Sequence record: NC_028656.1
From: Enterobacteria phage VT2phi_272
Length of the DNA: 64,000 nt
Reading direction: 5' to 3' (one strand)
Made by a program: the position numbers. This document shows, piece by piece, positions 30,001 to 36,000 of the stretch. Numbering within the stretch: position 1 is the stretch's first letter; the number at the start of each line of letters is the position of its first letter.

Positions 30001-33000
30001 GATTTTGACGGCACGCCCGGAAATCACGCAGCACAGTTTGGTGCGCTGGTTGATAAATTCCGTGCAGACCTGACGGATATGGCAGGTCAGTGCGTTGGTG
30101 GCTCTGCTGGCGGTGTTCCCTGGATCTGTGGAGATACGACGTATTTCTGGAAGCAGAAGAACGAATCCTCGTACCAGACGGTGTACGGCAGCTACAAAAA
30201 CAAAACGGAAAAGAATATCCATTTCGTACCGTTCATGACCGATGAGAACGGGGTGAATGTGCCGACGAACAAACCGGAAGAAGACCCGGACATTCCGGGT
30301 ATCGGGTATTACGGTTCGAAATGGCGTGACAGCTCAGCCACCTGGACGTCACAGGACAGGGCGAGCCATTTCAGTTCATGGGCTCGCCGCGGGATTATTT
30401 CCGACCGTCTGGCAACGGCGATTTTGCGCCATGCGGGAAGAGTGGCGCTAAACGCGGGGGCATCATCGACAGTATCAGAGGTGCGCCCGTCATCGCCTTC
30501 CGGTGCAGAAGCCACAGGCGTCACAACACTGCTCTCTTACCTTGTCAGCGAGTCAGAGGGAAGCCTGAAAGTACAGGGATGGTCAGCCAGTGGCGGCAGG
30601 GCAGAAGTGGTCAGCGATGCGGAGGGAACCGGAGGTAAGGCAGTGAAGCTGACCAAGGAAGCCGGTAAAAGCAGCTGGGTGCTGGAGTACGCCGCGGGCA
30701 ACGGTGCGGCTCTGTTACAGAAAGGGGGGCAGATTCGCTGCCGCTTTAAGGTTTCGGGAGCGCTGGCTGCGAACCAGTATGTTATGGCGTTTTACTGGCC
30801 GGTATCTTCACTGCCACAGGGCGTTGCCCTGACCGGAGTCGGGGGGAATAACCTGCTGGCAGCGTTCTACATCCAGACAGATGCAAAAGACCTGAATGTG
30901 ATGTACCACAATGCGAAAGTGGCGACAAACAACCTGAAACTGGGAAGCTTTGGCGCATTTGATAACGAATGGCATACGCTGGCTTTCCGCTTTGCCGGGA
31001 ATAACAGCCTTCAGGTGACGCCGGTTATTGATGGTCAGGATGGCACACCGTTCACGCTGACGCAGTCACCGGTCAGTGCCTTTGCGGCGGATAAACTGCA
31101 TGTGACAGACATTACCAGAGGTGCGACTTACCCGGTGCTGATTGACAGCATTGCGGTGGAAGTGAACAGCACAGACACTGCGGCATGATAAAAAAACCGC
31201 CAGCGACAGGAATGGACGCTGGCGGTGGTGATACCTATGGAGAAAAAATAAAGGAACGATACTTTCGTACTCTGGTTTTTAATGAAAACAGTTCTTATTG
31301 TCAACAATAACGGAAAGAAATTATGACATTTCTGAACCAGTTAATGCTGTACTTCTGTACGGTGGTCTGTGTGCTGTATCTCCTTTCGGGTGGGTACAGG
31401 GCCATGCGTGACTTCTGGCGCAGACAGATTGACAAAAGGGCCGCTGAGAAAATCAGCGCCAGTCAGTCAGCCGGAAGCAAACCCGAAGAGCCGCTCATTT
31501 AGCGGCAACTTTCTTAATCACACCTTTCGACGAGAAAATCCCATGTCAGAAATTACATCCCTGGTCACTGCAGAGGCAGTGAAGGACGTCCTGCGCTCTG
31601 AAGAAGTCCGGAGCGCACTGAAACAGAAACTTCGCCATAACCTGAAAGCGCGTCTTGATGCAAAAGTGGATGCCATTCTGGATGAACTGCTGGGCGCACC
31701 GGCAGCTCCGGAGCCGGAAGGCATCGCGGGTGAGGGGAGTGCTTCAGATAGCGGTGACCCCACACCGGACAGCGACATGATGATGTAAGCATGCGTCAGG
31801 GACCATCGGTGTGTGCCGGTGGTCTTTTTTATTGTTGTGAGCTTCCGGATTGCGGGAGGCGGGGTATGAACCAGATGGAAAAAATCACAACAGGTGTGTC
31901 ATACACCACGTCAGCGGTGGGAACGGGCTACTGGTTCCTGCAGTTGCTGGACAGGGTTTCCCCGTCTCAGTGGGCGGCAATAGGCGTGCTGGGGAGTCTG
32001 CTGTTTGGTCTGCTGACGTACCTGACGAACCTGTATTTCAAAATCAGAGAGGACAGGCGTAAGGCGGCACGGGGAGAGTAAGCTGATGAGCAGGAAACTC
32101 CGCTATGGTTTATCGGCTGCCGTTCTGGCGCTGATTGCCGCAGGTGCTTCTGCGCCTGAAATCCTCGACCAGTTTCTGGATGAAAAGGAAGGTAACCACA
32201 CCACGGCATACCGTGATGGTGCGGGTATCTGGACCATCTGCCGTGGAGCCACCCGGGTGGATGGTAAGCCTGTGATTCCTGGCATGAAGCTGTCGAAGGA
32301 AAAATGCGACCGGGTTAACGCTATCGAACGGGATAAGGCGCTGGCATGGGTGGAGCGTAATATAAAAGTTCCACTGACCGAGCCACAAAAAGCAGGTATC
32401 GCGTCATTTTGCCCCTATAACATTGGCCCCGGTAAGTGTTTCCCGTCGACGTTTTATAAGCGGCTTAATGCAGGCGATCGCAGGGGAGCGTGTGAGGCGA
32501 TTCGCTGGTGGATTAAGGACGGTGGCAGAGACTGCCGTATCCGTTCAAACAACTGTTACGGTCAGGTATCAAGACGTGACCAGGAGAGTGCGCTGGCATG
32601 CTGGGGTATCGACAGGTAAGCAGAATATTTTGCTGAAAAATGACGTTGGCCAACGCGGGCAGATAACACGAAATCCTGCGAACTGGCAAAATGTAAGTGA
32701 ATAAAGTCAACAAGATTGTTTCATGAAGAGGCACCGTAATGGTGCCTTTGTCATTTCTGCGCTTCGCACAAGCGTAAATAAACCAAAGAACCTTTCAGGA
32801 TGAGCCCTGGTGGATAACCGGCAGTGGTCTGGTTAACCCTCTTTGGGCTGGTTATTCCTGTGCGCAGGGTTCATCACTAAAAGGAAATAACCGATGAATA
32901 TGATGAACCGCCCCGGGTTTCCTGGAGAGTGTTTTATCTGTGAACTCAGGCTGCCAGATCATCGTTTCCGATGGAAGCATAATAAGCTTTTTCTGCTTCT

Positions 33001-36000
33001 GCCGGAGGAGTATGGCCCAGCCTTCCCAGCAATCGTCGATTGTTATACCAGTCCACCCACGTTAGTGTGGCCAGTTCCACTTCTGCACGGTTTTTCCAGC
33101 TCTTACGGTGTATTACCTCCGCTTTGTAAAGACCATTGATGCTCTCAGCCATCGCGTTGTCATACGAGTCGCCTGTACTCCCTGTTGATGCCAGTAATCC
33201 GGCTTCTTTTAGTCGCTCCGTATAGGCCAGTGACACATACTGAGAGCCTTTATCGCTGTGATGGATGGTGCCAGACGGACGACGGGCCCACAACGCCTGC
33301 TCCAGCGCATCCAGCACGAATGTCGTTTCCATAGACGATGAGACCCGCCACCCCACGATGTATCCGGCAAACACATCAATGATAAACGCCACATAGACGA
33401 AGCCCTGCCATGTGCTGACGTAAGTAAAATCAGCCACCCACAGCTGGTCAGGTCGTTCTGCCACGAACTGACGGTTTACGCGGTCGCCTGCGGCAACGGC
33501 TTTCCGGCTGATGGTCGTACGGACCTTTTTACCCCGGAGAACACCGGCAAGTCCCATAACCGCCATGAGACGTGCCACTGTACATCTGGCCACCCTGATT
33601 CCTTCCCGTAACAACTGACGCCAGACTTTACGCACACCGTACACCTGATGATTTTCATCGTATACGCGCTGTATCTCTCTCTTCAGCCAGTCGTCGTGCT
33701 GCGCACGGGCACTGCGTTTATCCGGATGATGTCGCTGTTGCTGACAATGGTAATACGTTGACGGGGCAATATGCAGTTCGCTGCATACCGGTCCGACCCC
33801 GTACTGCTCACGCAGCTTATCCAGCAGTGGCATCATTTTTTCCAGAGGCGGTCGAACTCCGCCTTCGCAAAATAAGCGGAAGCCTGGCGAAGGATATCGT
33901 TACTGCGGCGCAGTTCACGATTTTCACGTTCCAGCTCTTTCAGACGCTGACGTTCAGCGCTGGTGAGCCCACCATCACCGCCCCCGGTATCCCGCTCATG
34001 CTGGCGAACCCAGACACGCAGAGTCTCCGGCGTACAGCCAATCTTTGGGGCAATGGAACAAATTGCCGCCCACTGTGAGTCATATTCATCCTGACTTTCC
34101 AGAACCATACGAATCGCCCGCTGACGGACTTCGGGGGAAAAACGAGTATTTTTAGTCATCCTGTTTACCTCTTTCTCAGGGAGTTTAGTCTCCAGGATTT
34201 CCGGGGCGGTTCATGATGACCGTGCCGTTTCACGGCGATTCTCTTTATGTGGTTAACCATAACGGCGAACCATACGTTCCCATGAAACCTGTCGTTGCGG
34301 GGATGGGGCTGGCCTGGCAATCACAGTTGGCTAAGTTAAGACAGCGTTTTGCGTCAACTATAACGGAAATCGTTATGGTTGCTGAGGATGGGAAACGACG
34401 CAATATGGTGTCCCTGCCGCTTCGAAAACTTGCAGGCTGGTTACAAACCATCAATCCCAACAAAGTAAAACCCGAAATCCGCGGCAAGGTAATCCAGTAT
34501 CAGGAAGAGTGTGACGATGTTCTCTATGAATACTGGACGAAGGGTTTTGTCGTTAATCCCCGTCGAATGAGTGTGATGGAAGAACTCAATCAGGCTTGCG
34601 CTGACATGAAACGGGATAAAAACATTGCCAGTGTGTTTGCTACCGGGCTGAATGAGTGGAAACAGGTTAAATCCGCGCATGTATCAAAAATCCGCACATT
34701 GATAAACGAAGCGAATCTGCTGATTGATTTTGTCCTGGCTGATACAGGCAAAGGGAAAATAACAAAGGCGGATTGATGGAGTGGTGGCTAATGATATCGG
34801 ATAAACTCATAACGCTGGCGAAGATCCTCTGTGTAATCGTCGGCATTTCATTTTTAGTCATGCTGGTTGCCATTTTCTTTTCCACCGCCTGGCGAGTCCT
34901 GACGTTATCGGGACTGGTGGGGTGAAAGAGAGATGAACCGTGTTCTGTGTGTGGTGATTATTGTCTTGCTGGTAGCCTGTGGTGCGCTTAGTCTGGGGCT
35001 GAATCATTACCGCGATAACGCCATAACCTACAAAGAGCAGCGCGATAAAAAAGTCAGTGAGCTGGAGCTGGCAAATGCAACCATTACTGATATGCAGCAG
35101 CGCCAGCGTGATGTTGCTGCACTTGATGCCAGATACTCGAGGGAATTAGCCGATGCGAGAGCTGAAAATGAAACTCTTCGCGCTGACGTTGCCGCTGGTT
35201 ACCGCAGCCTGCGGATCAACGCCACCTGTCCAGGTCCCGTGCGTGAAGCCACCGGCACCGCCCGCGTGGATAATGCAACCGGCCCCCGACTGGCAGACAC
35301 CGCTGAACGGGATTATTTCACCCTCAGAGAGAGGCTGATCACTATGCAAAAACAACTGGAAGGAACCCAGAAGTATATTAATGAGCAGTGCAGATAGAGT
35401 TGCCCATATCGATGGGCAACTCATGCAATTATTGTGAGCAATACACCCGCGCTTCCAGCGGAGTATAAATGCCTAAAGTAATAAAACCGAGCAATCCATT
35501 TACGAATGTTTGCTGGGTTTCTGTTTTAACAACATTTTCTGTGCCGCCACAAATTTTGGCTGCATCGACAGTTTTCTTCTGCCCAATTCCAGAAACGAAG
35601 AAATGATGGGTGATGGTTTCCTTTGGTGCTACTGCTGTCTGTTTGTTTTGAACAGTAAACGTCTGTTGAGCACATCCTGTAATAAGCAGGGCCAGCGCAG
35701 TAGCGAGTAGCATTTTTTTCATGGTGTTATTCCCGATGCTTTTTGAAGTTCGCAGAATCGTATGTGTAGAAAATTAAACAAACCCTAAACAATGAGTTGA
35801 AATTTCATATTGTTAATATTTATTAATGTATGTCAGGTGCGATGAATCGTCATTGTATTCCCGGATTAACTATGTCCACAGCCCTGACGGGGAACTTCTC
35901 TGCGGGAGTGTGCGGGGATAATCAAAAACGATGCACACCGGGTTTTCTCATTTTTCACGAGATGGGAGCGATTTCCCGCGAAGCCGCCTGTCCGGTGCGG

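Follow-up and report, generated by a model that had tools for sequence, protein, structure and literature searches.

Does the IS629 insertion sequence (IS) that marks a well-studied lineage of Stx2a phages lie between genes, as published, or inside one, and in the latter case what becomes of the interrupted gene? The question is raised by Enterobacteria phage VT2phi_272 (sequence record NC_028656.1), from which we analysed a stretch of 64,000 nucleotides (nt), referred to below as the window. Here IS629 occupies a site between R and Rz, at the start of a putative antirepressor gene, ant. We consider it quite probable that the element lies 10 nt into ant and is read through by late transcription, that the remainder of the gene (ant′) is cut off from its Shine-Dalgarno (SD) sequence and leader, and that the protein is dispensable.

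The φPA8 insertion is already known from GenBank and two papers, and only its position relative to ant is new. The window is an argW-integrated Stx2a prophage of the φPA8 type (PST2-2), with a tRNA-Arg(CCT) at 1320-1394; over 49 kb it matches the PA8 chromosome at 99.98% identity, and it differs from KP682374 by 4 mismatches in 8.9 kb. Yin et al. (2015) described IS629 as defining PST2-2 and placed it 'within an intergenic region' (PMC4587872), and Gong et al. (2023) assigned it to a non-coding region and used φPA8 as the intact comparator for φPA2 (PMC10810198). The exact right-hand junction between IS629 and ant is found in 15 of 5,426 complete genomes, including the lysogen WG5::PA8.

IS629 and the native start of ant

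Direct reading of the sequence places IS629 at 32904..34213, complete at 1310 bp, with its transposase on the minus strand. Its imperfect terminal inverted repeats of 25 nt (right repeat, IRR, 32904-32928; left repeat, IRL, 34189-34213) read TGAACCGCCCCGG… and …CCGGGGCGGTTCA and are 86% complementary over 29 nt when the flanks are included; a length of about 1310 bp with imperfect terminal repeats is that of IS629. Both orfA (34159..33833, HTH_Tnp_1) and orfB (33836..32946, rve) run on the minus strand, with HTH_21 also matched in Pfam, and the ALIL frameshift pseudoknot is found in Rfam at 33878..33762 (121.5 bits). Two open reading frames (ORFs) joined by a programmed −1 frameshift with a pseudoknot are likewise the organization of IS3-family IS629. 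Over 32500-34400, Rfam at E ≤ 1 returned just this pseudoknot and a chance P37 match. PGAP labels the element 'IS3-like element IS1203 family transposase, programmed frameshift', and the copies annotated as IS629 in the VT1-Sakai, CP-1639 and Stx2a_F349/F723/WGPS phages (O157) match it at 99.7-100% identity. The target-site duplication, TGA, occupies 32901-32903 and 34214-34216. Many E. coli genomes and Stx phages carry, at 100% identity, the 350-nt empty site that results when IS629 and one TGA are removed, which proves both the insertion and the duplication and rules out a chance resemblance.

The native ant gene begins ATG AAT ATG ATG ACC GTG (MNMMTV…) and has 189 codons. IS629 sits after the first base of codon 4, and the junctions read ...AAAGGAAATAACCG ATG AAT ATG A / TGAACCGCCCCGGG ... 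CCGGGGCGGTTCA / TGA TGA CCG TGC, where the slashes mark the edges of the element. At the right-hand junction the last IS base (A) and the TG of the duplication form a hybrid ATG (34213-15) that re-creates native codon 3, because the native base preceding the target TGA is also A. The codon directly after it (34216-18) is the native ATG of codon 4, and the ORF would therefore exist without the hybrid codon.

Downstream of the element 187 of the 189 codons survive. The ant′ ORF (34213..34776, plus strand) spans 187 codons from the hybrid ATG or 186 from ATG 34216, retains P22_AR_N and ORF11CD3 (Pfam, 8e-45), and is closed upstream by an in-frame TAG at 34186-88. The start assigned to it is 34213 in PGAP and 34216 in the GenBank φPA8 record. 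So long a frame left open after the IS explains why annotators and two papers took the site as intergenic. On the left-hand side, a chimeric ORF of 81 codons (32894..33139, plus strand) consists of the native ant start and 3.3 codons followed by IS629 sequence antisense to orfB, and it matches no Pfam family.

SD spacing, annotation and the boundary between leader and coding sequence all point to 32894 as the native start, which would put IS629 inside ant. The native SD AAGGA (32881-85; SD to start codon, 32881..32896, plus strand; duplex −5.6 kcal/mol) stands 8 nt before the first ATG (ATG-1, 32894-96); the distance is 14 nt for the third codon (ATG-3) and 17 nt for the fourth (ATG-4). Every annotation of an uninterrupted ant copy, whether from PGAP or GenBank, starts at the ATG equivalent to 32894. 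The third line is the boundary between the leader described below and its cargo, which falls at the ATG aligned with 32894 in 14 phage copies and in 26 species-representative Enterobacterales genomes. The published 'intergenic' placement is thus inaccurate, though the protein loses just two residues.

A previous, sequence-only reading of this DNA had recognized a complete IS629 with a 3-bp TGA duplication, and the inverted repeats, ORFs, pseudoknot and 100%-identical empty site bear this out. Its placement of the element within the ant ORF agrees with the start annotated in uninterrupted phages, and the native ant SD is indeed displaced by 1.3 kb. It had also asked whether ant natively starts downstream of 34216; reference alignments place the start upstream of the IS, and the leader-cargo boundary agrees. 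The insertion point that it gave, after codon 3, needs adjustment: the element does split the ant start, but the quoted 'ATG AAT ATG A/CC' drops a TG, and the true site follows base 1 of codon 4. Likewise, an ATG does form at the junction as proposed, but it is simply native codon 3 again and the next ATG is native.

A structured leader upstream of ant and the φPA2 allele

The native start of ant is preceded by a structured leader (32779..32896, plus strand) that ends at the native ATG and is left intact by the IS but cut from ant. Its core is a hairpin of about 94 nt (32791-32884) whose basal helix pairs CCUUU (32791-95) with the SD, AAAGG (32880-84); the fold of 32779-32896 has an energy of −49 kcal/mol (z = −3.0). 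Just upstream of the leader, a terminator scan identified a terminator-like hairpin (32727-49) with a T-rich tail (32727..32759, plus strand).

Of 14 homologues, 13 have the SD base-paired in their minimum-energy fold. A covariance model built on 14 copies scores the window leader at 109.7 bits and recovers 43 copies, and none of eight chance-match control loci from non-Enterobacterales genomes. Across 42 distinct leader sequences, in an alignment fitted to the model, 94.4% of cells are paired and 11 of 22 pairs are compensatory, a level reached in none of 500 shuffles; covariation scores 0.255, slid partners give no more than 0.108, and an unfitted alignment gave the same picture. The SD helix itself is invariant across leaders, and covariation is silent on it. 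The genome-wide leader pattern was run without the AGAR prefix, and its matches (94 of 120 lacked the prefix) were filtered by prefix, fold and start codon. An initial alignment in which the Klebsiella and Erwinia helices were out of register was replaced, the register being settled by per-sequence folds and model-based alignment. Against Rfam 15, the leader gave no match at E ≤ 1 on the plus strand of 32500-32900 and none at the gathering score in the window. We also considered that the hairpin might encode a peptide, as an ORF of 54-63 amino acids (aa) is found there in some records; this was set aside, the window having no plus-strand ORF of at least 40 aa at that place.

The leader (about 115 nt) precedes cargo genes that are unrelated to one another by Pfam, namely KilA-N, KilA-N plus P63C, HNH_3, TerB and Rha. 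Copies occur in phages of Salmonella, Klebsiella, E. coli and Erwinia (including Erwinia jumbo phages) and in 26 Enterobacterales species-representative genomes, which makes more than 40 phages and prophages altogether. What precedes the leader varies, from R or Rz/Rz1 to Q with a terminator immediately before it or, in jumbo phages, a tRNA, but there is always a terminator upstream; phages of Salmonella, Klebsiella and E. coli show an equivalent hairpin and T-run ahead of it. The order of the cassette is terminator hairpin, short GC hairpin, SD-sequestering hairpin of about 94 nt and cargo ATG (loci L005, L009-L017, L019-L022 and 26 others).

Our best guess is that the leader may lock the translation of cargo genes carried on the late transcript, with RNase III processing and temperature as candidate openers of the hairpin. 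Among the papers searched for rha/IHF control in P22 and φ80, none offered a relevant precedent. More tentatively, and with more doubt than belief, we propose that the leader might be an undescribed conserved cis-RNA, part of a portable terminator-leader-ATG cassette for often toxic late cargo (Ant-N, KilA-N, Rha, HNH or TerB), from which ant would be uncoupled in φPA8, whereas φPA2 would keep the leader and carry an IEE-type excision scar of the same IS. If this is true, φPA8 and φPA2, both in K-12 lysogens, would form an allelic pair for finding the trigger of the hairpin, be it RNase III processing, temperature or a phage factor, and the function of the cargo. An SD-sequestering leader common to many Enterobacterales phage 'moron' genes and without an Rfam family could matter more than the insertion.

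Two leader matches lie on very short contigs of distant taxa, 'Xanthomonas pisi' (L102, 392 bp) and 'Kocuria sabuli' (L040, 700 bp), both carrying an enterobacterial phage leader. The former scores the same as the window copy, and its cargo shares the first 25 residues with native ant; assembly contamination is the most likely origin of both. At two Pantoea/Arsenophonus loci a second, weaker leader copy lies 0.3-1.3 kb upstream (L032, 3534-3648 and 4862-4974; L033, 3153-3268 and 3550-3660), which suggests tandem leader-cargo cassettes.

The φPA2 allele of ant bears directly on this site. Around ant φPA2 is 99.75% identical to the window but, with the sequence …AACCG ATG ATG ACC…, lacks 6 bp of the common allele; the deletion coincides exactly with the IS629 site of φPA8 and leaves a gene for the 187-aa product also specified by ant′. 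At the locus derived from KP682371 (L023, 1021-1045) the allele corresponds to window 32880-32903 followed by 34217 onward. Full-length matches to it were found only in PA2 and the PA2 lysogen among 725 genomes and only in PA2 records among 263 phage records; all remaining genomes and phage records retain the 6 bp. Relative to the occupied site of φPA8, the allele lacks the IS, one TGA and 6 flanking bp, with TGA/ATGA microhomology at the join. When IEE promotes the excision of IS629, the IS is reported to be lost along with 1-7 flanking bp (PMC9330008), and a microhomology-mediated end-joining activity of IEE is known (PMC9943667). From the sequence of the join, we think it reasonably likely that the φPA2 allele is an IS629 excision scar derived from a φPA8-like ancestor, in preference to an independent 6-bp slippage. 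A likely natural IEE excision scar in φPA2 could also matter more than the insertion.

Expression of the interrupted gene

The window carries, all on the plus strand, Q, tRNAs, stx2AB, nanS-p, S, R, the IS, ant′, a short orf, Rz/Rz1, and the terminase, portal, capsid and tail genes. In lambdoid phages, late transcription starts at pR' and is carried out by a Q-modified polymerase that ignores terminators. The phage φPA8 is inducible, forms plaques on MG1655, lysogenizes MG1655 and is spontaneously released in LB with 10 mM MgSO4 (PMC10810198), and its DNA was recovered from particles at high coverage (PMC4587872). Given this viability and the late operon, late transcription must cross IS629, antisense to the transposase. 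The terminator scan found just one terminator-like site on the plus strand inside IS629, a weak one in IRR (32913-32925). In the lytic cycle, RNA polymerase modified by Q would thus start at pR', upstream of stx2, read through IS629 and continue into ant′, Rz/Rz1 and the structural genes with no need of an IS promoter, and a phage with IS629 would in consequence stay fully infectious.

Translation is where the insertion would make a difference, by cutting ant from its own SD and from the leader that sequesters it. Leader and native SD would now drive the 81-codon ORF, a meaningless one ending in the IS at 33139, and ant′ would be left with a mediocre SD-like stretch in IRL whose spacing suits ATG 34216. 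This stretch, GGGGCGGT (34203..34210, plus strand), pairs with ACCUCCUUA at −7.2 kcal/mol through one internal mismatch and two G·U pairs, which is modest given that random 20-mers from the window reach −7 or lower with a probability of 0.07. Duplexes were scored against a 9-nt anti-SD; a 13-nt 16S tail was rejected for this purpose, its value of −8.1 kcal/mol coming from GAUC, which is not free in the ribosome. The spacer is 2 nt to the hybrid ATG and 5 nt to the second ATG. Because 2 nt is too short, 34216 is a likelier start than 34213 if ant′ is translated, and the hybrid codon is probably immaterial. Overall, Ant′ is probably translated weakly and without its normal control, and Ant appears dispensable for induction, lysis and plaque formation.

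A comparison already published is informative here. Supplied with its methyltransferase, φPA2, which has no IS at ant, equals φPA8 in phage release and induction frequency and in amoeba killing (PMC10810198). Because of this match, the altered context of ant is without large effect on phage release or amoeba killing. The IS629 of φPA8 is an ordinary, tolerated event.

Ant′ might alternatively be a silent, cryptic pseudogene whose frame has survived by accident, with ant no more than dispensable cargo. This is a real possibility, although we lean against it. Elsewhere ant is often damaged, by IS629 at about codon 91, by a 13-bp duplication or by a frameshift; the cargo behind the leader is interchangeable; and φPA8 behaves normally. 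Against silence, the frame is intact in all 15 junction-bearing genomes, the SD-like stretch stands 5 nt before 34216, transcription is expected across the region, and the 49-codon ORF downstream, which overlaps the ant stop, may depend on ant translation.

It is unlikely that an outward promoter in the IS629 end, the GGGGCGG stretch as SD and the hybrid ATG together form a new expression unit that frees ant′ from late transcription, possibly even in the lysogen. Pairing of the SD-like stretch at −7.2 kcal/mol, a weak TTTACC-16-TAGTCT site with 7 of 12 matches (34164-34191, plus strand) and the ability of IS elements of this family to activate neighbouring genes (PMC9330008) speak for such a unit. 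The geometry does not: IS3-family elements carry their outward −35 in IRR (PMC9330008) and activate a gene beside IRR, whereas the end facing ant′ is IRL, with orfA starting at 34159 on the minus strand. A strict promoter scan, set at 9 or more of 12 matches, was negative; a relaxed one gave four sites with 7 of 12, where shuffled sequence would give 2.8, and nothing scoring 8 or higher, both scans being insensitive. Only 2 nt separate the SD-like stretch from the hybrid ATG. The equivalence of φPA8 to φPA2 with the methyltransferase, both in how often they are induced and in killing, speaks against a gain of antirepressor activity in the lysogen. A literature search on an outward promoter of IS629 yielded only general IS3-family reviews.

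Least likely of all is that IS629 is truly intergenic and ant undisrupted, beginning natively at the third or fourth ATG: Yin et al. (2015), Gong et al. (2023) and the φPA8 start at 34216 in GenBank favour it, and the natural φPA2 allele, encoding the same 187-aa MMTVPF protein, indicates that the first two residues are not needed, but the native SD is spaced for ATG-1, uninterrupted copies are all annotated from ATG-1, the ATG remaining in φPA2 occupies the ATG-1 position, and in all other leader copies unrelated cargo starts 8-11 nt past AAAGG, in line with ATG-1.

The favoured reading remains an insertion within ant that is read through by late transcription, against which some points have to be weighed. 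The first-ATG start would follow from context and annotation, and we infer the read-through, the start codon used and the level of Ant′. Both promoter scans also missed the transposase's own promoter, so a weak outward promoter in IRL may exist. Finally, GGGGCGGT at −7.2 kcal/mol pairs nominally more strongly than the native AAGGA at −5.6 kcal/mol, and loss of the hairpin could raise translation.

For expression the sequence-only reading fared less well. Its view that ant would depend on outward transcription from the IS does not fit a gene in a Q-dependent late operon of a viable phage, with IRL facing ant′ and promoter scans at background. The GGGGCGG stretch, which it had put 5-6 nt upstream of the hybrid ATG, belongs to GGGGCGGT, 2 nt from that ATG and 5 nt from the second. 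As for the separation of R from Rz, the IS does add 1313 bp, but the two are natively about 1 kb apart, with the leader, ant and the 49-codon ORF between them, and a concern for lysis is not upheld by the normal published behaviour of φPA8.

The insertion itself, a published lineage marker of a well-studied phage, matters little. Moving it from an intergenic region to 10 nt inside ant affects the use of φPA8 as a 'wild-type' comparator, φPA8 and φPA2 differing at ant as well as at the methyltransferase gene. An intact reading frame can mask a disruption from annotation pipelines, as φPA8 ant shows.

Neighbouring features and comparison with known systems

The 189-aa ant product matches P22_AR_N (PF10547) over residues 3-111 (E = 8e-45) and ORF11CD3 in its C-terminal half. 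The architecture of full-length P22 Ant (about 300 aa) was not found, Pfam identifying no Ant C-terminal family in the 189-aa protein. The putative name 'antirepressor' reflects similarity of the N-terminal domain only. The Φ24B antirepressor was rejected as a functional guide: it is a different gene, located before qut, and its identity to P22 is C-terminal (PMC3064807).

Upstream in the late operon lies R (32086..32619, plus strand), a lysozyme-type endolysin gene by Pfam (Phage_lysozyme, 6e-25) and RefSeq. Downstream, a hydrophobic ORF of 49-50 codons (34776..34925, or from 34773, plus strand; no Pfam match, hypothetical protein in RefSeq) is probably translationally coupled to ant, because its ATG overlaps the ant stop (TGATG), and IS629 may affect it indirectly. 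The spanin genes follow, with Rz at 34933..35397 (plus strand; Phage_lysis, 2e-49) and Rz1 embedded in it at 35153-35338 (3e-22).

IS629/IS1203-like insertions occur in the same lysis cassette of other prophages: mid-ant at about codon 91 with target-site duplication ATA (L004, 2067-3376), in codon 7 of Rz with GTG (L144, 2234-3543) and at about codon 20 of R with AGG (L145, 1201-2510). The transposase is antisense to late transcription in all three, as in the window. The ant insertion at about codon 91 (ATA) is carried by FDAARGOS_293 and relatives. In other prophages PGAP calls hybrid Rz and lysozyme coding sequences that start within the IS end. In another, independent lesion, ant of the Stx1 phage AU5Stx1 (L006, about 905-930) has lost its frame through a 13-bp tandem duplication of AACCATAACGGCG, and its record lists a shorter version that starts at a later ATG; the copy in 2011C-4251 is also frameshifted. 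In NZ_CP140519.1 (PNUSAE151637; 1508189-1508362) a 100-nt IS-ant junction query matched in two pieces over 174 nt, pointing to some 74 additional bases at the junction or close to it, through rearrangement or as an assembly artefact.

Elsewhere in the window, Rfam identifies two tandem pairs of isrK and C4 antisense RNA on the minus strand (5429-5611 and 17384-17571); coordinate mapping puts the latter across the start of a Rha-family gene whose PA8 annotation includes an internal stop. Both isrK and C4 are classic antirepressor-control RNAs. Downstream of stx2B, at 28840-29099, STnc100 (plus strand, 207.7 bits) is directly followed by AsxR (minus strand, 88.1 bits), both known small RNAs of Stx phages. 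ARAGORN calls the tRNA at 27183-27258 (plus strand) Met (CAT), whereas RefSeq has tRNA-Ile in PA8 and WG5::PA8; this phage tRNA, which lies upstream of stx2, is probably of the ileX type with a lysidine modification.

Among known systems the closest is the IS629 of φPA8/PST2-2 itself (KP682374; PMC4587872; PMC10810198), identical in element, nucleotide position and prophage type; the difference from those papers lies in its position, here 10 nt inside the ant ORF, cutting ant from its SD and leader, instead of intergenic. Related insertions are the IS629 in the PST1-5 lysozyme gene (Yin 2015; PMC4587872) and IS1203v in stx2 (Kusumoto 2000, as cited in PMC8136144). They share with φPA8 the IS family, the late genes of inducible Stx phages as targets and 3-bp duplications, but only in φPA8 ant does nearly the whole ORF survive downstream with a regenerated start codon. 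With IEE-promoted excision of IS629 (PMC9943667; PMC9330008), φPA2 shares the loss of a few flanking bp and a microhomology join, although in φPA2 excision is proposed from the sequence and independent 6-bp slippage between ATGA repeats is an alternative. As in the hybrid (fusion) promoters of IS3-family elements, of the IS911 and IS2 Pjunc type, an IS end abuts the 5' end of a gene in φPA8; here, however, ant′ adjoins IRL and not the −35-bearing IRR, no −10 partner is evident, and the insensitive scans gave nothing beyond background.

Translational control of antirepressor genes has precedents in P22 Ant with sar RNA and in the P1 c4-icd-ant system. The likeness is a toxic, regulator-type gene with control of its ribosome-binding site at the RNA level; the difference is that control here would come from a cis-acting, SD-sequestering hairpin in a late operon, and that the protein has just the N-terminal domain of P22 Ant. 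For the insertion, the parallel is the classical work in which λ N and Q antitermination suppresses IS polarity in lambdoid operons. There too an IS within an operon is read by a terminator-resistant polymerase and the downstream genes are expressed, the φPA8 case differing in that it is deduced from the viability of the phage; φPA8 provides a clear instance of an IS tolerated in an antiterminated late operon.

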